A stretch of 64,000 nucleotides of DNA from Desulfuromonadales bacterium. Its GTDB lineage: Bacteria; Desulfobacterota; Desulfuromonadia; Desulfuromonadales; SZUA-540. The notes below the pieces were generated by a model that worked only from the letters and a program-made list of their open reading frames with translations, had not been told where the DNA came from and did no database searches. The position numbers were made by a program, and so were the translations under genes. Where the stretch lies: the NCBI GenBank assembly GCA_033549025.1, contig JAWSUS010000004.1, positions 114,847-178,846 on the forward strand, in the 5' to 3' direction. Positions 5,291 through 56,344 of this stretch are shown piece after piece (the first letter of the stretch is position 1; each line of letters starts with the position of its first letter).

Positions 5291-6124
5291 TCAGGGAGTG
5301 ACCGCTTCCAGCGGTGACAGGGGGGGGATGTCCAGGGTCTGCACGAGTTGGGAAAACTCGCCGTCTTTGAAGACGATGGGTAGCATGCGGGTGAGGGGGC
5401 GAAGCTTGCGGGGGTTTTTGAGCCAATCCTCCAGGTCTTTTTCGGACCAGGGCGCATCCTTGCCCGGTTTTTCAGGGCTGCGCGGATAATAGGGGGTGAG
5501 TAGGCCGGAGAGGTTGGGGGCCGTTTCACCCTCACCGAGCCCACCCTCTTTCAAGGTGAGGGCGCGGTGACAACCGCCACAGCGTTTGGCGAAGATGTTT
5601 TCCGAGGCGGCGCCTTCTTTCTCGAAGTGAATGACCAGCGGCGTCTCGGCGAGCGATGGCGGGGCAGCGGCCCCTTCTTTAAGCAGAAGCGTCACCATGG
5701 CAGCAAGATCATCAGGCCCGAAACGGAAGTCGGGCATCAGGGCCACGGGTTGGCGGATACTCTCTTCCAGTTCCAGCGGTGGCGTGACGGCGGCGGCGCG
5801 GTCAAGATTGCTGGCCAGGGTGGTGCCCTTGCCGCCCAGAGTGTGGCAGCGCCGGCAGCCGGCCTGGTCGGCCAGGGTGGTGCCGCGTTTTACCACGGGA
5901 GAGTCGGTCTGGTTGAAGGTGGCATGGCGGCCGGGCACGAAGCGGTCATGAGCGATCTCCTGGCGCTTGGTGCCGGGGTGCCCGCGATGGCAGTCGGTGC
6001 AGGTGCCCTGACCGTCAAAATGAGTCTCATGACAGCGCAGGCACAAGGGTTGACCGGCTGCGCAGGAAGCGCCCACGGGCATAGCCAGCAGAAAAAGAAT
6101 CAGAAAGGCAACACGAAAGCCCAA
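5291..6124 (-). CDS. extS: Tetraheme c-type cytochrome, ExtS-like
   Basis: Signal peptide; CLRCH, CTDCH, CRRCH, CGGCH; last gene of the ext-type operon. Confidence 0.75.
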   Translation of the reverse strand: MGFRVAFLILFLLAMPVGASCAAGQPLCLRCHETHFDGQGTCTDCHRGHPGTKRQEIAHDRFVPGRHATFNQTDSPVVKRGTTLADQAGCRRCHTLGGKGTTLASNLDRAAAVTPPLELEESIRQPVALMPDFRFGPDDLAAMVTLLLKEGAAAPPSLAETPLVIHFEKEGAASENIFAKRCGGCHRALTLKEGGLGEGETAPNLSGLLTPYYPRSPEKPGKDAPWSEKDLEDWLKNPRKLRPLTRMLPIVFKDGEFSQLVQTLDIPPLSPLEAVTP

Positions 6125-6513
6125 TTTTCACCTCGAAAAAACATGGCAATCAGCGTCAGGGTCAAAATGCCGAAGAAGGCGACCAGGCAGAGGGCGGTGG
6201 CCAGACGCTGATCACGGCCAAACCAGCGAGCGCGGGTGGCCGGAGGCGATCCTGGCAGGAAGGGGAGCAGCAGAAAGACCAAGGCACCGACGATGATGAG
6301 ATAGACCAGGTACTTGGAATAGCTCACCAGTTCCTGGGTCCACAGCAGGAACCAGGCGGATTTGACGGGATTGGGCACGGTGGCGATGTCAGCCGGCCCC
6401 TGCAACGGAGCGGGGAGGAGCAGGGCCAGCCCCATGAGCACGAGGCAGGTGACCCATGCCGCCCTTTTGATGAGAGGAAAGAAACCCTCGGTGCTGAAAA
6501 CGTATTTTTTCAT
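6100..6513 (-). CDS. extQ: Cytochrome b6f subunit IV-like membrane protein, ExtQ-like
   Basis: APL..PAD...PNPVKSAWFL motif, 3 TM; ATG overlaps the stop of the cytochrome b gene. Confidence 0.75.
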   Translation of the reverse strand: MKKYVFSTEGFFPLIKRAAWVTCLVLMGLALLLPAPLQGPADIATVPNPVKSAWFLLWTQELVSYSKYLVYLIIVGALVFLLLPFLPGSPPATRARWFGRDQRLATALCLVAFFGILTLTLIAMFFRGENWAFVLPF

Positions 6514-7136
6514 AGGTAGGGCAACACTCCCTTGTCTCGCCGGATGCGGTAAAAATGCAGCAGGCAGAGGGCGAGCATGCAGGCCGGCACAAAGACGATA
6601 TGCAGGGCGTAAAAACGCAGCAGCGACAGCTCGCCGCCGACCTCGTCGGGCACCAGAATCCGTTTCAGCGCCGGGCCGCCGGGTACCGTGGCTAGCAGCT
6701 CCATCCCCGTCTGCGTGGCCCACAGGGCGAGCTGATCCATGGGCAGCAGATAGCCGGTGTAGGCGGCGAAGACGGCCAGGCAGAGCAGTCCGAAGCCGAT
6801 AATCCAGTTCAGCTCCCGCGGCTTGCGGTAGGCCCCGGTGAGAATCACGCGCAGGGTATGTAGGAAGATAAAAATCAGCAGCGCGTGGGAGCAGATGCGG
6901 TGCAGGCTGCGGATATAGCCGCCCAGAAAGACGCTGCGCTCCAGGGCCAGAATCGACTCAAAGGCCTTCTCCGGGGTCGGCTGATAGTAGAAGATCAGCA
7001 GCAGGCCGGTGACGATGAGGAGCAAAAAGGCGGTAAAGGCCAGTCCCCCCAGGCAAAAGGTATAGGTCATCCGCAGGTTGCGTCGCAACACCACGCGAGG
7101 GAAGAGATGGGCGATAAAGTCTCTATACACGCTCAA
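6510..7136 (-). CDS. extP: Cytochrome b (b6 N-terminal-like), ExtP-like
   Basis: RSLHR, LHTLR, Y.KPRELNW, TGYLLP.DQ...WA, RFYALH. Confidence 0.85.
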   Translation of the reverse strand: MSVYRDFIAHLFPRVVLRRNLRMTYTFCLGGLAFTAFLLLIVTGLLLIFYYQPTPEKAFESILALERSVFLGGYIRSLHRICSHALLIFIFLHTLRVILTGAYRKPRELNWIIGFGLLCLAVFAAYTGYLLPMDQLALWATQTGMELLATVPGGPALKRILVPDEVGGELSLLRFYALHIVFVPACMLALCLLHFYRIRRDKGVLPYL

Positions 7137-7535
7137 TCAGGCCTTTCCGCTGTAGATCGTCAACAGGTCGCCACGTTCTTCCAAAGCCAACCGCCGCAGG
7201 GGCTCGTCGGCCGGGCCGGACAGTACGGCGCCGTCGCGGGCAAAGAGGCTGCCGTGACAGGGACAGACCAGGTTCGTGGGGGTGACCGACACCGTACAGC
7301 CCAGATGGGTGCAGGTCAGGTCCAGGGCGAACACCTCTTCGCCCTGACGGATGACGGCCACCCGTGCCTGGCGAAAGACCAGGGCGCCGTCGGGGGGGAT
7401 GTCACCTCGTGGGACCTCCAGCAACACCTGCTGCGGGGCGGCCTTGGGAAAGAGAAATTTGCCGACCAGCAGAGCCAGCCCCGAAAAAGTCAGGGTTTTG
7501 AGGAGGTATCGACGCTTTCGACCAAACTTTTCCAT
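7137..7535 (-). CDS. Rieske 2Fe-2S protein
   Basis: CTHLGC and CPCHGS motifs; RKRRYLLK Tat-like N-terminus. Confidence 0.88.
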   Translation of the reverse strand: MEKFGRKRRYLLKTLTFSGLALLVGKFLFPKAAPQQVLLEVPRGDIPPDGALVFRQARVAVIRQGEEVFALDLTCTHLGCTVSVTPTNLVCPCHGSLFARDGAVLSGPADEPLRRLALEERGDLLTIYSGKA

Positions 7536-8722
7536 TTTTCGATATAAGCCTTGGTGTAGGTGGACGTCGGTGTGCTCAGGCGCTCGTAGCGTTCTGGCGT
7601 CATGAACTGGCCGTTGACCAGGGTCTGTCCTTCCTGACTCCAGAAAGAGGGCAACGGCAGACCGTCGCGCTGCAGTTCGTAGATACGGTCTCGGGGGTCT
7701 TCCAGCAGAAAGCGGCGCGGATTGTCGTGGCAGGCCTCGCAGGTCGCCGTGCCGCGACGGATGGTATGGGGAAAGAAGGCTTTCCACTGGGCGGCGACCA
7801 GGGCGTTTTCCACCCGATTCGGATCATCCTTTTGGCGCAGGTCCGAGTAAAAGGCGATGAACTGGGGCCGGATTGGGCTGACCTTGCCGCGACTGTTCAG
7901 CCCCAGGGGGGGCGCGTTCTGCTGGCGCAGATAGGCGCTCTGCACATATTCATCGGCCGGATTCTGCTTGAGATTGAAGTACTCGCGGTTGGGGTTGTTC
8001 CCCAGTCGCAGGAAAAAGCTGCCGTATTCCTGGGGTGCCCAGCTGGCGTGGCAGGCAGTGCATTCCAGTTGTTCCCGATGGGCGGCGATGCGGTGCTCGA
8101 CAATGGTCGGGTCCGGTTCATGGCAGTCCGTGCATTCCTTGGCGCTGAGACGGCCGTCCACCAGGCTCTGCATGCTGTGGCAGTCGCCGCAGCTCAGCCC
8201 CGCTTCCTCATGCACGTCGGGGCGCATCTTCAGGTAGGCTTGGCCGTCGACGATTTCGCCCCGCTGGTAGCGGTTGTGATTCTCTCGCGGCGCCCGTCCG
8301 AAAAAGTCGGCGCCGACAAAATAGCCCTGGTGACAGCGGTGGCAGGTGTCCGAAGTCGGGCGCGTGAGGGTATGGATGTCCGCCCCGTGGCAATCAGCGC
8401 AGGAACTTACATGGCAGTCGGCGCAGTTCTTTTGGAAAAAGTCAGCGTCATGGGCTCCGAAAGCGCCGTGTACGAAGGCCTTCTCAGCGCTGCGGGTGGT
8501 CATGGCCTGGGTAAATATAGCTTCATAGCCGCCGTGGCAGTCCGCACATGCCCGTGCCCCGTCGCGCACCGGGCCGGCGTCGCCTGTCGTATGGCAGTCG
8601 GCGCAGCTGAGGTCGCCATGGGCGCCGCTGAGGCGTTTTGTGGTGGGGTCGGCCACGGCCGCCCCGCAGAGGCTAAGGCCGAGCAGGCACAGAGCGCTCA
8701 AGGCAGCGATCCAGCGCGCCAT
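7490..8722 (-). CDS. Nonaheme c-type cytochrome (ExtN/ExtO position)
   Basis: Signal peptide and 9 CxxCH motifs; C-terminal half resembles the upstream dodecaheme (LGLN.RGKVSP.RP). Confidence 0.88.
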   Translation of the reverse strand: MARWIAALSALCLLGLSLCGAAVADPTTKRLSGAHGDLSCADCHTTGDAGPVRDGARACADCHGGYEAIFTQAMTTRSAEKAFVHGAFGAHDADFFQKNCADCHVSSCADCHGADIHTLTRPTSDTCHRCHQGYFVGADFFGRAPRENHNRYQRGEIVDGQAYLKMRPDVHEEAGLSCGDCHSMQSLVDGRLSAKECTDCHEPDPTIVEHRIAAHREQLECTACHASWAPQEYGSFFLRLGNNPNREYFNLKQNPADEYVQSAYLRQQNAPPLGLNSRGKVSPIRPQFIAFYSDLRQKDDPNRVENALVAAQWKAFFPHTIRRGTATCEACHDNPRRFLLEDPRDRIYELQRDGLPLPSFWSQEGQTLVNGQFMTPERYERLSTPTSTYTKAYIEKWKSLVESVDTSSKP

Positions 8723-10556
8723 AGTCGAGTTCCTTTTGGTAGATGGGGTCTTTGGGGTTGTCGTGGCAGACCAGACATAGGTTGACCGCCAGCACTTTCT
8801 TCACCTCTGCCCCATTGAGGGGCCGGGAGTTCTCGCGGGTGATGGCGGAAAAGGCCTTTACCTTGCCGTTCTCCATCGTCAGATAACCGTCCAGAGGCTT
8901 GCTGTCTGATTTTTCGCACAGCAGGGTCCCTTCGATGGTGGCGCCCTCGATGACATGCTGCCCAAAACCGAGGAAAGACGGATTGCCATGACACTCGGCG
9001 CAGCCGACAGCCCGGGTGCCGGTGTTGTGGCTGTAAAAGGGGGCGAAACGCAGCTGTTGGCGGTCGCCGAAGCGGGCCACGTACTCGTCCTTGCTCTTGC
9101 GGCCGTCGCGTTCGATGACGGTGACGAAGGTCTGGCAGCCCGGTGTCACCGGCGAAACCTTCCCGCGCTGGTTCAAGGCCAGGGGGAAGGGGTAAAGCAT
9201 GCGAAAATCTTCTGTTTCGCTGAAGGCGCCGGGGGTGTCGTAGCCCTTGACAAAATCGCGAGCGTTGCGGGTGAGGTCGTACTCGGTGTGACAACCGTAG
9301 CACTGCACCACCGTACGCGAATGGCAGCTGTAACATTCGAGGCGGTCGTGGCCGACGATGGTGTGCTCCGGCGTGTCGGTGATGACCTTCGATTCATGTA
9401 GCTTACCGCTGCGCTTGCCCTGCAGCCAGATCTTGCCGTCCTGCTCGAAGACGTTGGCGTATTTGCGCCTCTTGGCTGTCAGCACCATGTTGGCGCCGTA
9501 GGTCATGGGCAGCTTGTAGCTGCGCGATTCTACCAAAGCGCTGTCGTTCTCACGGCTGATGGCTTCCAGCCGTGGGTGCTCCCGGGCGCCGCCGTGACAG
9601 TCTTCGCAGGCGGTCTCCGTCTGCAGATACATATTCTCGTAGGCGTAGCCATCCCCCATGACATCGCGGGAGGTGTGGCAGTCGATGCAGTCCATCCCCT
9701 TGGCGTGGTGGATGTCGGGGGCGATGCTGGTGACGTTGCGCACGCTGCCGATGAGTTCAGGGCCGGGGATGGCGTCTCGGGTGGGCACCAGGCTGTTGTT
9801 GCCGTCATTAAGGCCCTGGTAGGAGAGGGCGATGCGCCCACTGCGGTTGTGACAGCGGAAGCAGACCTTGTTGTCGGGCAGGGCGGCCATTTCATGGCTG
9901 GCCGAATAGGGCCACTTGCCATGCACCGTCTCGTCGCCGCCCTGGTAGGTGGCGTTGTCGTTGTAGGGGAAATGGCAGGCGGCGCAGCCCGCGCCATGGC
10001 TGCCCGTCCAAATCTGATTAGCTTCCTGGCCGACGTGGCAGAGTGAACAGCCCTTGCGATAGAGTTCACCGGCGAGATTGTTGAGGTCTTTGACGGGGTG
10101 CAGTTTTTGCGGGTCGCCCTTGGCGTCAAAAACCTCCTCCTGGCGGGTGCCGTACAACTGGCCGTCTACACCCTCCCAGGTGAGTTGGGCGTTTTTGATG
10201 ATGCCGGTGTTGGTGTACATCAGGTTGGAGCGGACCCGTTTCAGTTGGCTCTCGTGGCAGCCGCCGCAGCCCTTGTCCCAGAACGCGGGGTCTGCCGGAT
10301 TCTTTTTGCCGAACATGCCCCGGTGGGCGGCGTCCTTGTTGTCGGTGCCGGGGTCGCCGCCGTGACAGGTCGTGCAGGCGCCGTGGGTGGGGGAGGCGAG
10401 CTCCAGCCCCTGGTGGCAGCTCTCGCAGCGGGACTCCTCGTCCTGGCTGGTGGTGCAGCCGATGGCGGATAAAAGGAGCAGGACAGCCAAGGCCCAATAT
10501 GACAGAAGACGATGCAGCGGCATAGATTCAGTAATGATGGATGATGGCGATTTCAC
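8673..10556 (-). CDS. extM: Dodecaheme c-type cytochrome lipoprotein, ExtM-like
   Basis: 12 CxxCH motifs; lipobox SAIGC; true start may be ATG 10523. Confidence 0.85.
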   Translation of the reverse strand: MKSPSSIITESMPLHRLLSYWALAVLLLLSAIGCTTSQDEESRCESCHQGLELASPTHGACTTCHGGDPGTDNKDAAHRGMFGKKNPADPAFWDKGCGGCHESQLKRVRSNLMYTNTGIIKNAQLTWEGVDGQLYGTRQEEVFDAKGDPQKLHPVKDLNNLAGELYRKGCSLCHVGQEANQIWTGSHGAGCAACHFPYNDNATYQGGDETVHGKWPYSASHEMAALPDNKVCFRCHNRSGRIALSYQGLNDGNNSLVPTRDAIPGPELIGSVRNVTSIAPDIHHAKGMDCIDCHTSRDVMGDGYAYENMYLQTETACEDCHGGAREHPRLEAISRENDSALVESRSYKLPMTYGANMVLTAKRRKYANVFEQDGKIWLQGKRSGKLHESKVITDTPEHTIVGHDRLECYSCHSRTVVQCYGCHTEYDLTRNARDFVKGYDTPGAFSETEDFRMLYPFPLALNQRGKVSPVTPGCQTFVTVIERDGRKSKDEYVARFGDRQQLRFAPFYSHNTGTRAVGCAECHGNPSFLGFGQHVIEGATIEGTLLCEKSDSKPLDGYLTMENGKVKAFSAITRENSRPLNGAEVKKVLAVNLCLVCHDNPKDPIYQKELDYGALDRCLERSVPARP

Positions 10557-10640
10557 GAGATGAAAAGACTTCCGGTATCTTAACCGAAGTCCTCCGGGAC
10601 AACCAGTAAAAAGGTCGGCGGTGAAGCGTCGATGTTCACG

Positions 10641-10690
10641 AAAAAAAGCGGCTGACCGGATATCTCAGCGGGAAGAATCCGGCCAGCCGC
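10641..10690 (-). terminator. Intrinsic terminator/attenuator after extKL
   Basis: gcggctgaccggat/atccggccagccgc stem followed by a T7 tract on the minus strand. Confidence 0.7.
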
Positions 10691-10733
10691 GCATGGCAAG
10701 GTGGTTCATTGTCAGGAGGGCTACGGCCAGTGC

Positions 10734-12050
10734 TTAAAGTTTACTGACCTTCACCGTTTTGACCTCTTCCTTCCAGAGGAAGGGGTCGCTCTGCTTGTTG
10801 CCGTAAGGCAGATACCAGAGCTGCACTTTCAGTTCCATTTCCGTTTGCCCTTCGGGGAAGCGGATTTCAAAGTGTTCCTTGACTTTCTTTCCCGGGTGTA
10901 GCCCGGTGTCGGCAATGATGCCGCTCTTCTCGTAGGGGCCGCGGCCCATTTCGTCGCCCCGCGCAAATTTCTGCGGGATAGGCATGTAGATCTTGTCCTG
11001 ATTGTAAACTTCCTGACCATCCTTCGTTGTAGCGATTACCGACAGAACCAGTCGGTTGGGGGTCGGTCAGCCATCGGGGATGGCGTGGCCGGTGCGGTTG
11101 GTCATGGCCACGTCAAGCATGACCTGAGGCACCACATTACGGCCGTCACGCCAGTTCATAGCATTGGCATGGACTTCAAACTCCACGGCCCGATCCGCCA
11201 TGCCTTTGTCGCGGTAGCTCTGCATGTTGTGGCCGAGCCCGCTCTCTTGCATGTGACACTCCTGGCAGGTCTGGTCGCCGCCGCCGGCTACGTAGGACCA
11301 GAGGTAGCTGCCATAGGCCGTGGCGCACTGAGTGGGGTTGTCCAGCTCCAGGTTGGGCCCGAGGCCGTGACACTGGCCGCAGAGGATCGACTCCTTCATG
11401 ATGGGGCTGGCCTTCATGACCGGGAAGTCGGCATCCATGTGTTCGCCGTCCACGTTACCGTAGACCACGCCGGCCTGCGGATAGCCGTCGGCCCACTTGT
11501 GGGTGATGGCCATGCGGTTGTGGCAGACCAGGCAGTTGATGTTGAGCTTGAGCAGGGTTTCCTTCTTGGCTTCGAAGGTCTTCATGTCGTCTTCGGCGTA
11601 GGCGTTCATGAAGTCGTAGATGGTGCCGACGAATTCCTTGGCCACGGCGTCGGTGGCGTCAGCCAGCTGGGGCAGGTGGCACTTGGCGCAGCCCATCAGG
11701 TGTTCGACTTCGACATCCTTGGGGTCGGTGACGCCCGAATAGGCCCAGGACATAAAGCCGTTGGTAAAGGCGGTCTTGAAAGTGGCGGCGGTACGGCCGG
11801 TGCCGTACACCGAGCGGGAGTGAGCCGATTGGGCCCACTCGTCATGCGCCTCCTGGTGGCAGTCGACGCAGGAGCTCGAATCGTACATGTCGATCAGCTC
11901 CTGCAGGGTGTTCGCTTTGCCTTTTTTGGCGGCGATGGTGCCGTCCTTGCCGATGCCCGCCGCCTCGCTGGGAGAGGGAGCCAGGCCAAAGGTGGCAGCC
12001 GCCAGGAAAGCGAGACCCCAGATACTAAGAGTCCTTCCTGTCGCGTTCAT
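10734..12050 (-). CDS. extKL: Pentaheme c-type selenocytochrome ExtKL (Sec at in-frame TGA 11067-11069)
   Basis: 5 Cxx[20 protein letters not shown] continues in frame into the 10734-10985 ORF; hairpin directly after the TGA; 438 aa in total. Confidence 0.9.
11039..11066 (-). promoter_or_regulatory. Putative SECIS element of extKL
   Basis: ccgac-cccc-aacc-GACT-ggtt-ct-gtcgg stem-loop immediately 3' of UGA. Confidence 0.75.
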
Positions 12051-12091
12051 ATCCGTTCCATTTCATATTTGGGTTGTTTGGTGCAGTTCAG

Positions 12092-12136
12092 AAAAAAATC
12101 AGGGCAGATCAGGCCCATTTAAGCCCGACCTGCCCC
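12092..12136 (-). terminator. Hairpin plus U-tract between extJ and extKL
   Basis: gggcag..../....ctgccc stem with a T-run on the minus strand. Confidence 0.5.
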
Positions 12137-12147
12137 GAGGGTGGGAA

Positions 12148-12390
12148 TTAGCAGCCCATCAGCATGTCTTTGCCTTTTTTAGGGGCGGCTTTCTTCTCTT
12201 CTTTTTCTTTCTTTACTTCCACTTTCACGGCATCGCCGACGCTCACGTCAGCCGCATCGCCTTTTTCCACTTCAATAGTGACCGTTTTGCCGCTGACGGC
12301 GGTGACCTTGCCTTTAAGCTCGGCTTCGTCAGCGAAGGCGACGCCGGCGCTCAGCAGGGTGATAGCGGTCAGAATAAGCAGTTTTTTCAT
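12148..12390 (-). CDS. extJ: Small periplasmic protein ExtJ-like
   Basis: Signal peptide, OB-like GKVTAVSGKTVTIEV, C-terminal LMGC; sits between the porin and extKL. Confidence 0.8.
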   Translation of the reverse strand: MKKLLILTAITLLSAGVAFADEAELKGKVTAVSGKTVTIEVEKGDAADVSVGDAVKVEVKKEKEEKKAAPKKGKDMLMGC

Positions 12391-12422
12391 GGTTTCTCTC
12401 CTTTTTTACTATTCAGCAGAGG

Positions 12423-13607
12423 TTAAAAAATCAGCTGCAGCTGGGCAGCCAGGGTGTTGATATCCTCGGTCTTCTCGCCACCGAAGAACCCTTCCTGGTC
12501 GAAGTCTGCCACAGAATACTCAACAGTCAACTTGAGATCCTGGCCGCGCAGATAATAGTTGAAGCCAGCGGCGTAGGCGGTGATTTCCTGGTCAACCACA
12601 TTGTTCAAGGTGGCAAAAGACCAGTCTTCATAACGGGCGAAGATCTGCAGCGGAGTGTTGGGCAGCATGTAGCCGGCCTTGTAGTAAGAGCCGTTTTTCT
12701 CGCCGTTGATGCCGGTGAGGCCGGTAGCGGTGTTGGTCTGGTAAGCGTCGTCGAGATCATAGTCGACGTAGGCGCCGGACAGGGTGAAGGTGCCGACATC
12801 TTCGACCGGATACTCGAAGAAGCCGTCCACGGTCCAGGCGGCGTAATCGACGGAACCGCTATTGGGAGCTTCGTACTCGACGTCAGACTCGAACTGGTAG
12901 GCGGCGCCCACGGTGAGGACCTTCTTCTCGCCCATGTAGGTGCCTTTGTAGCCGTAGCCGGTCTCTTTGTCGAACAGGCTCACATGACCGCGTGCGCTGT
13001 AGCGCAGGTTCGATTTGGGGGTGGAGTCGCTGTCGTTGCGGCCGTTCATGGCGTCAACGCGGTACTGGAACATGCCGTCAGCCAGATTGCCCCACACGGC
13101 CACCCCTTTGTCGCGGGTGCTGACATAAGGGGCGCGGATGAAGTACGACCGGTCGAGGGTCAGGGGCGCCTCGCAGGCTTCGAGGTTTTCACGGGTCAGG
13201 TTGTATTTGAACTGACCGACCCAGATGTTGACCTGCTCGTTGAGCTTGAAGCGCATGACGGCATCCAGAATGCGGAAATCCGAGTTGTCGCCGTCACTGA
13301 CGGAAATAGATCTGATGTTGTTGTCCTCGTTGAATTCGGTCTGCACATAGAGGCCGAAGTTGGAGCCGTAGGCGCCCATGAGGGCCAGACGGTTGCGACG
13401 GAAGTTGAACTCGCTGGCCGACTCGTCATTGTTCTCACCGGCGCCGGTGTCACGATGGTTGAACTGGAACTGACCTTTGTACTCCAGTTTGAGCAGGCCC
13501 TGGTCCTCGGGACCAAACTGCCAGACGGGTCCGGCCACGGCCGTAGAGGCCAACAGCATCATGCCCGCGAGGGAAGTTACGATATGACGTAGTTTCACGG
13601 TATTCAC
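12423..13607 (-). CDS. extI: Outer-membrane porin (phosphate-selective porin O/P-like), ExtI
   Basis: Signal peptide, FRRNRL, GQFK, RD.G, terminal QLIF beta-signal. Confidence 0.85.
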   Translation of the reverse strand: MNTVKLRHIVTSLAGMMLLASTAVAGPVWQFGPEDQGLLKLEYKGQFQFNHRDTGAGENNDESASEFNFRRNRLALMGAYGSNFGLYVQTEFNEDNNIRSISVSDGDNSDFRILDAVMRFKLNEQVNIWVGQFKYNLTRENLEACEAPLTLDRSYFIRAPYVSTRDKGVAVWGNLADGMFQYRVDAMNGRNDSDSTPKSNLRYSARGHVSLFDKETGYGYKGTYMGEKKVLTVGAAYQFESDVEYEAPNSGSVDYAAWTVDGFFEYPVEDVGTFTLSGAYVDYDLDDAYQTNTATGLTGINGEKNGSYYKAGYMLPNTPLQIFARYEDWSFATLNNVVDQEITAYAAGFNYYLRGQDLKLTVEYSVADFDQEGFFGGEKTEDINTLAAQLQLIF

Positions 13608-13650
13608 TCCTTTATGGAAAGTTCCGAATTTCAGATATAGCTCAAATTAC

Positions 13651-15045
13651 TTAGCACAGAGGCGCATCGCTACCGCTAACAGGCGTAGCCGGACCACTTT
13701 CGGCGCCGCCACTGGAAATATAAGCGTCATCCGTCGTTTCAACCTGGTTGGTTTCGGCCGCGCCCGGCGCGTACCAGTTCTCAAGGTCAGCGCTGAAGGG
13801 AGTCCGGTAGATGTCGCTAATTGTCAAGGGGACTATAGAGTCATCTGCGAGTTTCTTTGTGTTACCGTTTGTAGCATTGTACGAAGGTCCTGTTGTCCCG
13901 TCGGTGGAGACCACGTATTGCGAAAGATCCCAAAGGCTCCCAATGGGAAGTCCAGCGCCGGTCACACTATCGTATCCATCTTCGGCAACGGTGCCGGTAA
14001 TGGCGGCGTACTGGCCCGCGGTGCTCCAAGAGCCGTCAAAGACCTGGACGGGGCTACCGAGGATGGCTTCAAGTGCGAAGTAGATCGGGGTGCAGGAGTA
14101 GCCGGAAGTGCAGTATGTGATAACTGGCAGGCCCGGTTCCCAGCCCACGGCTTCAAAAAGGCTTGTAAGATCGTTGGTGGTGTCGGCGTCATCGTCGCTG
14201 ACAGGCTTGAATTTGCCGTCAGAGCCGAAAAGGGTCCCTTGGGACAACGCTACGCCGCCAGCGGGGCGACCTTCAAAAACGACGAAATTGCTACCCATTA
14301 GGGAGCCAGTCGCGGCTGTACCGTAGAACCCGGAGGTTGTAGAGGTCAGGGAGGCGCGGGCGTCCATAGTCAGGTAATCGACGCCGTTGACTTCATCTGA
14401 GTCCAGTTTGGCAATGAGTTCACCGATGGAAACGCGCAGGTCGCTGTTCAGGGTCCCCAGATTCTTGACGCTGTAAGTCGAGGGTGTAGGCTCTGGAACT
14501 TCTGCAGTCAGTTCAAAACCATCAGCAGCCCAGGCATTATAGCCCCCGTTAAGCACTTTCAGGCGTTCCTGAGGGAATCCCCAGTAGCGGAATGTCCAGT
14601 AGACGCGGGTTTCAAGATACATAGACCCGGAAGTGACGAAAACGATAGTGGTGTTCTCGTCGATTCCCAGGCGCTGGATGACGGCGTCCATTTGCTCGCC
14701 GGTGGCAACCATTGATCCTGCTGGAGCCAGGCCATCAAGGCGGGTGCCGCGCAATTCATTGGTGCCAACACGACAGGCTCCGGGTATCCGGTCACCACTG
14801 CTGCCGTACTCGAGGATAACAACCTTATCGTTGAAACTGCTGTCAGTATTGACCAGGCCCTGATCAATCCAGGCCTTAAGGGTAGCTGGTTCAATAAGTA
14901 CATCTGTGGCTGAGCCAGCCACCGGGGTGTTGGTGACGGTCGTTGGGGTATCATAGCTGTCCGACCCGCAACCCCACATGACCACAGAGGTCAGCAGAGC
15001 CAGGGTCACCATCATAAACGATTTTCTGAACGTGCTCAGATTCAT
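13651..15045 (-). CDS. extH: Tandem rhodanese/sulfurtransferase lipoprotein ExtH
   Basis: Lipobox MWGC; RIPGA, LGI...TTIV, VLNGG..AW, YCTSG active-site loop, FDGSW; terminal Cys. Confidence 0.85.
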   Translation of the reverse strand: MNLSTFRKSFMMVTLALLTSVVMWGCGSDSYDTPTTVTNTPVAGSATDVLIEPATLKAWIDQGLVNTDSSFNDKVVILEYGSSGDRIPGACRVGTNELRGTRLDGLAPAGSMVATGEQMDAVIQRLGIDENTTIVFVTSGSMYLETRVYWTFRYWGFPQERLKVLNGGYNAWAADGFELTAEVPEPTPSTYSVKNLGTLNSDLRVSIGELIAKLDSDEVNGVDYLTMDARASLTSTTSGFYGTAATGSLMGSNFVVFEGRPAGGVALSQGTLFGSDGKFKPVSDDDADTTNDLTSLFEAVGWEPGLPVITYCTSGYSCTPIYFALEAILGSPVQVFDGSWSTAGQYAAITGTVAEDGYDSVTGAGLPIGSLWDLSQYVVSTDGTTGPSYNATNGNTKKLADDSIVPLTISDIYRTPFSADLENWYAPGAAETNQVETTDDAYISSGGAESGPATPVSGSDAPLC

Positions 15046-45946: not shown

Positions 45947-45971
45947 ACCTTTCGACTTTTTGTCTGATGCG

Positions 45972-46005
45972 ATCCCCCGGGAAGCCTTTCCCGGGGGATT
46001 TTTTA
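45972..46005 (+). terminator. Intrinsic terminator after ppdK
   Basis: atcccccgggaa/ttcccgggggat stem plus T tract. Confidence 0.85.
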
Positions 46006-46104: not shown

Positions 46105-46641
46105 ATGGCTTCACGGTTTACCTCTGCGCGCGACGGCGTCTGGAATCCCTATCTGGCTGGAGCCCTTTCCGGGCTGGTCTCCGTCTTCTCCGTGTGGATC
46201 GCCGGGAAATATCTCGGCGCTTCCACCACATTTGTCCGTGCCGCCGGCATGATCGAAAAGGTCTTCTCGCCGGAGCGAGTGGAAAAGCTCGACTACTTCA
46301 TTAAAACGGCGCCCAAAATTGACTGGCAGTGGATGTTCGTAGTTGGCATCTTTATCGGCGCCCTCATTGCCTCCGTCAGCGGACGCACCTTCCGGTTGCA
46401 GGGCTTGCCCGATATGTGGCGCCAGCGGTTCGGCGGCGCCAGTTACGGTCGGCGCGCCCTCTTTGCCTTCACTGGCGGCGCCGTAGCCATGTTCGGAGCG
46501 CGTCTGGCCGATGGCTGACCGAGTGGTCATGGGCTGAGCGGTTCGCTCCAGCTAGCTGTCAGCGGTCTTATTTCTCTCGCCTGCTTCTTTATCGGCGGCA
46601 TCCTTGTCGCCCGCCTTATCTACGGGAGGAAGTCCTCATGA
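46105..46641 (+). CDS. YeeE/YedE (sulfur transporter) family membrane protein, probable selenoprotein (Sec at TGA 46516-46518)
   Basis: WNPYLAG, LGAS, GARLADG-TGA-PSGHGLSG matches the family GxRxxGGCxSGH motif; frame stays open to a TGA overlapping the next ATG; 178 aa. Confidence 0.82.
46514..46563 (+). promoter_or_regulatory. Putative SECIS element of the YeeE-like gene
   Basis: gcUGAc pairs with gtcagc (46558-46563); upper stem gctgagcg-GTT-cgctccagc. Confidence 0.65.
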
Positions 46642-47165
46642 ACATGCTCATTTACGGGCTGCTCACCGGTGTGGCCTTCGGTTTTATTCTGCAAAAAGGC
46701 GGCGTGCTGCGCTACGACAAGCAGCTCGGCGCTCTACGTCTTATCGATATGACCATTATCAAATTCATGCTGACCAGCGTCCTGGTCGGCATGGTTGGTA
46801 TCTATCTGCTGGTTGATCTGGAGCTGGCCAAGCTCAGTCTCAAGACGACGATTCTGGGCGGCAACATCATCGGCGGGCTTATTTTCGGCATTGGCTGGGG
46901 CCTGCTCGGGTACTGCCCCGGCACCTCTGCCGGTGCCCTGGGTGAGGGACGCTGGGACGCGCTCTACGGCATCCTCGGCATGGTGGCTGGCGCCGCCGTC
47001 TACGCCGAAGTCTTTCCCCTTATGAAGCGCACCGTACTCACTTGGGGTAACCTAGGCAAGATCACCATCCCGCAGGTGCTGGGTGTCAATCACTGGCCGG
47101 TGATCCTGGTCTTCATCATCGGAGCGGTTTTGCTCTTTCTGTTTTTTGAGAAGAAGGGGTTGTAG
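46638..47165 (+). CDS. YeeE/YedE family partner membrane protein
   Basis: G..FGFILQ, GGLIFG.GWGL.GYCPGT motif; ATGA overlap. Confidence 0.88.
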   Translation: MNMLIYGLLTGVAFGFILQKGGVLRYDKQLGALRLIDMTIIKFMLTSVLVGMVGIYLLVDLELAKLSLKTTILGGNIIGGLIFGIGWGLLGYCPGTSAGALGEGRWDALYGILGMVAGAAVYAEVFPLMKRTVLTWGNLGKITIPQVLGVNHWPVILVFIIGAVLLFLFFEKKGL

Positions 47166-54195: not shown

Positions 54196-55504
<1,309 letters not shown>

Positions 55505-55512
<8 letters not shown>

Positions 55513-56344
55513 TACCATAGAGCAGTTTGGACAATCGACCATCCAGCACGGCCCCCACAGCAACCGGGCCTACCTGATGAGCCTGGCGGCCGACGACCTG
55601 CCCCGGCTGGTTCCCTATCTCGATCAGCTGGCTCAGGAGCAGGCCTACACCAAAGTCTTCGCCAAGGTGCCGGAGGCGGCTCTGGAGCCTTTCCGGCAGA
55701 GCGGCTACGAAGCCGAGGCCGAAATCCCCGAATTCTATCGGGGGGAAGAACACGTCTATTTCATGGGCAAGTATTTCTGCCCCGAGCGCCAGCAGGAGCG
55801 CAAGCCCGATCTGGTGGAGAGCGCTCTGCAGGCCGCCCAATCCCGACAAGGGAGCCAGGCCGACCTCGCGCTGCCGGCGTCCATGACCTGCCGTCTGACC
55901 GAACCCGCCGATGCAGAGGCCATGGCCGACGTCTACCGGCAGGTCTTCGCCACCTATCCCTTTCCCATCCACGATCCCGGTTATCTGCGCGAGACCATGG
56001 AGAGCCATGTCGATTACCTGGGCATCTGGGATAATGACCAGCTCGTTGCCCTGGCTTCGGCCGAAAAGGACGTGCGCGGCCGCAACGCCGAGATGACCGA
56101 CTTCGCCACCCTCCCCGACTACCGGGGGCAGGGGCTGGCCGGCCATCTGCTCGACCGCCTTGAAGAAGTCGCCGGTGAGCGCGGCATCCAGACCGCCTAC
56201 ACCATCGCCCGGGCCTACAGCTACGGCATGAACATCACCTTCGCCCGCGGCGGCTACACCTACAGCGGCACCCTCACCCACAACACGCAGATCTCCGGCG
56301 AACTCGAAAGCATGAACGTGTGGTACAAGCCGCTGGCCAGCTGA
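55505..56344 (+). CDS. ablB: Beta-lysine N-acetyltransferase
   Basis: QHGP...[37 protein letters not shown]. Confidence 0.88.

Follow-up and report, generated by a model that had tools for sequence, protein, structure and literature searches.

The 64,000-nucleotide stretch of DNA analysed here (the window) contains a half-size YeeE/YedE gene interrupted by an in-frame UGA at codon 138. Comparison of related sequences makes it almost certain that this codon is decoded as selenocysteine (Sec), which would give a 178-aa protein, and this Sec half is a further member of a selenoprotein family whose listing goes back to 2016 at the latest. The Sec half (46105-46641, plus strand) begins in frame 1 with the ATG at 46105 and runs for 137 codons to the TGA at 46516-46518, in the context GARLADG*PSGHGLSG, after which exactly 40 codons stay open before a terminal TGA (46639-46641). 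That stop overlaps the ATG of the partner gene at 46638 in the sequence ATGA (46638-46641, plus strand), and the partner half (46638-47165, plus strand) encodes 175 aa. The TGA, the 40 further codons and the ATGA overlap, together with the GYCPGT motif of the partner, had been described in the original prediction and are seen in the sequence. It had also placed one more hydrophobic helix beyond the TGA; residues 150-168, within the 40 additional codons, are indeed the top hydrophobic stretch of the Sec half, and residues 145-173 form a helix in its predicted model. The ATGA overlap, which recurs in 87 of the 95 loci compared below, Cys forms among them, would couple the translation of the two halves. 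Upstream lies ppdK, named through a PPDK_N match on the equally long 887-aa gene upstream of the pair in another locus (L034), and a terminator-like hairpin 3′ of it (45971-46000, plus strand; 13 pairs and a T-rich tail, consensus match only) parts the pair from the upstream genes. On the downstream side a 237-aa ORF converges on the pair and matches neither Pfam nor NCBIfam. Because of these flanks on both sides, the pair is a stand-alone two-gene unit.

Codon 138 and the downstream hairpin

To compare codon 138 we used 95 distinct loci, the window's own included, that remained after 15 duplicates were dropped. Eighty-two of them carry TGA at this position and the other 13 carry TGC or TGT (Cys), and neither TAA nor TAG occurs in any; this is the Cys/TGA alternation that the original prediction had proposed to test for. 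In a DNA search of the order, 92 of 201 genomes matched at E ≤ 1e-15, and the top 30 loci comprised 23 with TGA and 7 with Cys; the best 80 of 219 GTDB loci comprised 72 with TGA and 8 with Cys, and none of the alignments contained a further stop. At the protein level, 119 of the best 120 homologues listed (of 5376 matches) have Cys at column 138, the sole exception being the truncated product of the window itself, although the truncation of TGA forms in the database skews this set towards Cys. In every one of the 95 loci another 36-42 open codons follow codon 138. Across 119 homologues the mean identity is 0.72 for residues 139-178 and 0.60-0.67 elsewhere, so that conservation, no lower here than in the remainder of the protein, does continue past the TGA. 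An RNA-library contig (X6, record 28, 46329-46572) shows no difference to the window across the TGA, which is therefore not a sequencing error. RNA-library contigs cover parts of both genes (X6 in 25 of 30 bins, X12 in 19 of 30), a coverage that is no proof of transcription or co-transcription.

The labels of the TGA loci include Thermodesulfobacteriota, Nitrospirota, Myxococcota and Bacillota. A quick version of the locus tree, read without root or direction, needs 14-15 label changes, at least 5 of which are forced by well-supported branches. Three more distant matches that had been scored with one TGA each (in G042, G198, and G148) all have Cys at the site and thus provide no second origin of Sec.

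A bacterial SECIS-type hairpin follows the UGA (46533-46552, plus strand). It has 8 pairs, one bulged base (46548) and, 23-25 nt after the UGA, a G-first loop, GUU (46541-46543), and corresponds to the upper stem gctgagcg-GTT-cgctccagc of the original prediction, which conservation and covariation bear out. All 8 pairs are present in 72 of the 82 TGA loci versus 1 of the 13 Cys loci, and the loop G is invariant (82/82 TGA loci). Synonymous codons under the hairpin are frozen (Ser AGC in 82/82, Gly GGT in 78/81, and Ser TCG in 78/80), whereas a neighbouring Gly codon varies freely (43/18/16/5). Across 70 distinct rows, pairing is kept in 97.7% of cells, and 25 show two-sided changes, namely G-C to A-U in 9 and C-G to U-A in 16 (two pairs); these counts come from related sequences and are not probabilities. 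None of 500 shuffles matched the paired share, the two-sided changes or the covariation score, while the number of covarying pairs was reached by 413 of 500 shuffles and is not above chance; slid controls were 25-45% paired. The folding energy of the single sequence in this region is unremarkable (z −0.3 to −1.2), and it is the comparison between loci alone that is informative.

The predicted lower stem fared differently. GCUGAC/GUCAGC is complementary in the window, but all six pairs are found in only 20 of the 82 TGA loci, with two of the pairs holding in 53 and 44 of the 82, and we ruled it out as part of the conserved element.

The genome has the machinery that decoding would need, a point that the original prediction had put up for checking: selA, selB, and selD lie together on contig C5, all above their cut-offs, and tRNA-Sec (selC) is on contig C3. 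The selD gene has an in-frame TGA of its own. Since selA was found in 180 of the 201 genomes of the order, its presence discriminates little, and the departures are more telling. In one 100% complete genome (G028), placed inside a TGA clade on the tree, the site is TGC and the hairpin is broken, and we found no selA, no selB and no strong match to tRNA-Sec (47.8 vs 74.6 bits); two genomes of the same genus (G001 and G043) keep selA, selB, and tRNA-Sec. Another genome with the Cys form (G044) had neither selA nor selB. Among the 23 genomes with the TGA form, one (G163, 83% complete) gave no selA match and has selB. Close Cys-type matches occur in 47 genomes, of which 5 are among the listed selA-negative ones (one selA-negative genome is unlisted), and many Cys-form genomes retain selA, so that a capacity for Sec does not impose its use here. 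Sec is optional at this site and, as Cys versions of the gene exist, would be an upgrade of the Cys. G028 (L012/L036) records an apparent change from Sec to Cys with decay of the SECIS element, while relatives in the same genus keep Sec. P. propionicus, listed as Sec-negative, has the Cys form (P0097).

That UGA138 is a true stop, a pseudogene lesion or a codon read through as another residue is extremely improbable. Such a stop would fit the truncated entries of 131-137 aa in public databases and the hairpin folding that is not significant in the single sequence. It is contradicted by the restriction of the codon to TGA or Cys in every locus, by the conservation of residues 139-178, and by a hairpin that tracks TGA, with Cys appearing where the Sec machinery is missing; TGA also still serves as the terminal stop of the same gene in 89 of the 95 loci. 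The short entries instead bear out the expectation that gene callers would truncate the Sec half: 137-aa examples are BCA78896.1 and MCP3176863.1, and those of Malonomonas have 133-135 aa. The Sec call therefore corrects the annotation of a subgroup that is held in public databases largely as such truncations. Malonomonas rubra DSM 5091 carries the pair twice, as separate TGA-bearing loci (L042 and L043), both deposited as truncated hypothetical proteins.

A catalogued selenoprotein family

A YeeE/YedE selenoprotein with domain PF04143 and representative WP_012471001.1 is already catalogued in rows of PMC13188914 and PMC9312934, the former giving the motif GUxSG. The supplement of PMC5029168 counted 5 proteins in 5 organisms in 2016, and its main text makes no mention of the family. 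Supplements of PMC12013277 print the sequence of WP_012471001.1 and two further predicted members, again with no mention of the YeeE/YedE selenoprotein in the main text, and the main text of PMC2398784, which PMC13188914 and PMC9312934 cite for the family, mentions YeeE/YedE nowhere.

The Sec half fits this family by domain and by motif. On PF04143, where the cut-off is 27 bits, the read-through 178-aa protein scored 79.9 bits over profile positions 170-310 and the truncated 137-aa form scored 48.8 bits, and the single Sec lies in GUxSG at the conserved Cys column (G137-U138-P-S-G). When WP_012471001.1 (PMC12013277, supplement file 3) was compared by eye with the Sec half, the 24 residues A128-A151 were identical, Sec included, and the protein is likewise half-size. 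The window's protein therefore resembles the catalogued one in domain, size, number of Sec residues and motif, with no difference in kind. Two Trichlorobacter loci serve as proxies for WP_012471001.1: by tblastn L084 shares 71% and L098 68% identity with the Sec half, and both repeat the TGA, the hairpin and the partner seen here; in L098 a partner protein named for T. lovleyi stands beside the TGA gene. We take WP_012471001.1 itself to come from Trichlorobacter (Geobacter) lovleyi.

The novelty implied for a Sec-containing transporter thus does not hold, as the family and its motif had been tabulated with a close homologue having the same Sec site as representative, and the Sec call adds no selenoprotein family. 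The rows for the family in the catalogues are silent on the partner gene, the mapping of the site and the covariation of the SECIS element, and the 82 distinct TGA loci lie far above the five organisms of 2016. In the open-access papers searched we found no experimental study of the YeeE/YedE selenoprotein, and no data on selenium incorporation at the protein level or on transport for any Sec form.

Probable pairing of the two halves

The two genes correspond to opposite halves of TsuA/YeeE, with the Sec half being PmpA/YedE1-like and the counterpart of the C-terminal half, and the partner, which matches PF04143 and DUF6691, being PmpB/YedE2-like and the counterpart of the N-terminal half. Against the structures of S. 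thermophila YeeE (8j4c/6leo), the Sec half aligns to residues 232-330 (E 0.0035), which puts Sec138 (46516-46518, plus strand; motif G-U-P-S-G-H) on Cys293, and the partner aligns to residues 2-117 (E 1.5e-5), with its Cys93 on Cys91. The position of Cys22 is Leu in the partner. In StYeeE, C293 meets thiosulfate at a periplasmic indentation, and C91A and C293A are inactive while C22A is active (PMC7449682, in part). The original prediction of a split YeeE/YedE pair with Sec at the conserved relay Cys is thus upheld; of the thiosulfate relay that it invoked, two chalcogen positions (Cys91 and Cys293) have equivalents here and Cys22 has none. A second Cys of the Sec half, Cys160 (46582-46584), lies in its last helix; its conservation reaches at least 90% across 124 aligned homologues, and S. 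thermophila YeeE has no counterpart.

The two halves very probably pair 1:1 and rebuild the YeeE hourglass as a heterodimer. The partner gene is adjacent to the Sec-half gene in all 110 loci, and its Cys codon is TGC or TGT in 80 of 80 loci, with TGA in none. Fusions of the two half types into a single chain occur in nature; one of them (P0242) joins a partner-like segment (residues 1-144; 39%, E 1e-24) to a Sec-half-like one (residues 197-332; 36%, E 2e-19). Complex prediction for the natural Cys pair of L036 gave 0.49 versus 0.00 for the best control, with a contact agreement of at least 98% and a partner pLDDT of at least 73. Of 157 solved complexes, 116 reach the mark that it passed, as do 2 of 215 mismatches, and scores of 0.60 or less include 18 of the 157 solved complexes and both passing mismatches; the score may mirror likeness to solved YeeE, and we grade this support as weak. 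The AlphaFold model of the Sec half alone is poor (pLDDT 66, pTM 0.39, and below 50 around Sec); with this low-confidence model of one half, the best Foldseek row was 6lep (E 2.6), none being significant, and a VIA search returned nothing significant. Another candidate fusion, P0240 (318 aa, 57% identical), was rejected as an N-terminally over-extended call.

PmpA/PmpB in Serratia and YedE1E2 in Cupriavidus and Sinorhizobium are likewise encoded by two neighbouring half genes, each with a single key chalcogen residue, at the position of Cys293 in one and of Cys91 in the other. For the former, PmpA is the C-terminal and PmpB the N-terminal half, and a heterodimer has been proposed (PMC11582611, in part). 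The window's pair differs from both in the length of its halves (175-178 versus about 130 aa), in having Sec in place of Cys and in the absence of a persulfide dioxygenase gene beside it; by its length it belongs to a longer subgroup. TsuA/YeeE of S. thermophila (6LEO, 8J4C) and E. coli has both halves homologous to ours and the C293 and C91 equivalents; unlike it, a single chain of 330-350 aa, the pair here is split into two genes and has no C22 equivalent and no adjacent TsuB/YeeD.

Cargo, mechanism and the ext cluster

Our preferred reading, held with modest confidence, is that the pair imports sulfane sulfur, from polysulfide or persulfide, as a heterodimer in which a selenolate acts as the nucleophile at the entry. 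SelB almost certainly binds the hairpin at 46533-46552 so that UGA138 is decoded as Sec, and the two-gene operon supplies both parts of an inner-membrane transporter of the YeeE/YedE type. Sec138 very probably sits at the periplasmic entry site, in the position of Cys293, with Cys93 of the partner one step inward, in that of Cys91. The selenolate would attack an S-S bond at the entry, the sulfur would pass to Cys93, and it would be released to cytoplasmic thiols or to sulfurtransferases encoded elsewhere. A selenol pKa of 5.2 is given in PMC13510729 (in part). Sulfane sulfur as the cargo, by analogy with the split YedE1E2 pair, has somewhat better than even chances; it is favoured because that pair imports zero-valent sulfur and requires both Cys (PMC10812762, in part). 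Transferring function from PmpAB or YedE1E2 is nevertheless a stretch, since the halves here are so much longer than those of the tested pairs.

The presence of Sec at the entry residue and never at the inner Cys of the partner may point to a covalent relay, in which the selenolate cleaves polysulfide or persulfide and the resulting selenosulfide hands the sulfur to Cys93; we propose this step tentatively, at a little under even chances. Whether YeeE proteins use a hydrogen-bond or a sulfur-transfer relay is debated (PMC11582611, in part). If the covalent relay were true, it would contrast with the S-H···S hydrogen-bond relay proposed for thiosulfate and would make the pair an integral-membrane sulfur-group translocase with Sec in its pore, and natural pairs of Sec and Cys orthologues would be a ready test of the covalent versus hydrogen-bond question for the whole YeeE family. 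Sec occupies the substrate-entry residue of a transporter family of debated mechanism, and Sec and Cys versions within one genus make that mechanism testable.

A thiosulfate importer for assimilation, with the same Sec heterodimer working like TsuA through non-covalent passage along chalcogen residues, is unlikely. By sequence the pair matches TsuA models and structures best, and both residues essential in StYeeE have equivalents here, while C22 is dispensable there (PMC7449682, in part). The scores nevertheless fall far under the NCBIfam cut-offs for TsuA (NF041049 and NF052577; 30.6 vs 645 and 46.9 vs 400), and a selenolate, being a poor hydrogen-bond donor, would be expected to repel the anion. 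TsuB is essential for TsuA (PMC11582611, in part), yet neither TusA nor TsuB occurs among the 150 nearest neighbours scanned.

These neighbours were taken from 80 loci with a crude ORF picker, 150 of 155 being scanned, and they give almost no clue to the cargo. The flanking genes are not conserved and no conserved functional partner was found in the 80 loci; the recurrent neighbours are sensor kinases (20), a cNMP-binding protein (9), a PsiE-family protein (7), and a CoA-disulfide-reductase-like flavoprotein (7), and the scan returned one rhodanese, one AhpC and one ArsR. The flavoprotein follows the pair within a single clade (L075, L087, L090, L094, L096, L107, and L112), where its gene lies directly 3′ and has an inserted CxxxxC segment; a 44% homologue is on contig C13 of the window's own genome. 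The PsiE-family membrane protein gene lies just 3′ of the pair in L060, L065, L074, L077, L092, L098, and L100, and in some loci abuts the partner gene.

Two other YeeE/YedE loci occur in the same genome. A Cys-only paralogue pair on contig C22 (L120, G000:C22:3500-11500; 45-47% identical) stands behind an MBL-fold plus rhodanese gene and a DASS-type transporter, near TauE, and is a typical sulfane-sulfur module; like the flavoprotein, it speaks for a sulfane-sulfur cargo. On contig C12 (L121:3611-5012), a fused 376-aa YeeE/YedE below all NCBIfam cut-offs is followed by an 80-aa TusA-like gene and is the likelier TsuA/TsuB-type system of this genome. The two TusA matches of the genome are on C3 and C12, with none beside the Sec pair. 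The one on C3 (G000:C3:181911-182607; open frame of 201 aa) lies about 400 bp from tRNA-Sec and is possibly YedF.

Transport of a selenium species (selenide, selenite or selenosulfide), with the pair gating itself by selenium supply through its UGA, is quite unlikely. Other YedE proteins (TIGR04112 and NF033796 YedE/FdhT) belong to the same superfamily and are Cys-containing membrane proteins tied to selenium metabolism (PMC5322559; PMC11582611; both in part), and the order of the genes here, Sec half first, is the domain order of NF033796. Unlike them, the pair is not beside sel genes, of which none occurs among the 150 neighbours, and it lies below their cut-offs, with no TIGR04112 match at the locus and an NF033796 score of 27.9 vs 350. 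Close Cys orthologues also persist in G028 and G044 without Sec machinery, and an importer that requires Sec would presumably be missing when selenium is scarce.

The original prediction had further suggested that the transporter may serve the ext system, a link that we find to be weak. The ext cluster (extH, I, J, KL, M, N/O, and S) lies within the window at about 5294-15045 on the minus strand, 31 kb from the pair, which is on the opposite strand and behind its own terminator-like site. With at most 8 candidates scored per genome, the search turned up ExtKL in 15 of the 23 TGA-form genomes versus 39 of the remaining 178, while 17 of the 47 genomes with close Cys-type matches had it; this enrichment is confounded by kinship. 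In one genome (G197) three other genes and a distance of 3.4 kb separate the pair from extS. ExtKL had no match in the remaining 8 of the 23 TGA genomes, six of which are at least 98% complete, and in 39 of the 54 genomes with ExtKL no TGA form was seen. MccSep reduces polysulfide in the periplasm, and the consulted part of that source mentions neither YeeE, YedE nor a transporter (PMC13510729). That the pair is a dedicated inner-membrane component of ext (MccSep/ExtKL) polysulfide or selenite respiration is accordingly very doubtful, and a way of life common to these organisms, sulfur-respiring and rich in Sec, accounts for the overlap with ExtKL just as well as a dedicated link.

ExtKL/MccSep in the window, a known selenoprotein polysulfide reductase, has one in-frame TGA of its own (match at 10746-11987). 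On the other side of the pair, ablA and ablB (54196-56344, plus strand), encoding lysine 2,3-aminomutase and beta-lysine acetyltransferase, both score above their NCBIfam cut-offs and presumably form an osmolyte pathway.
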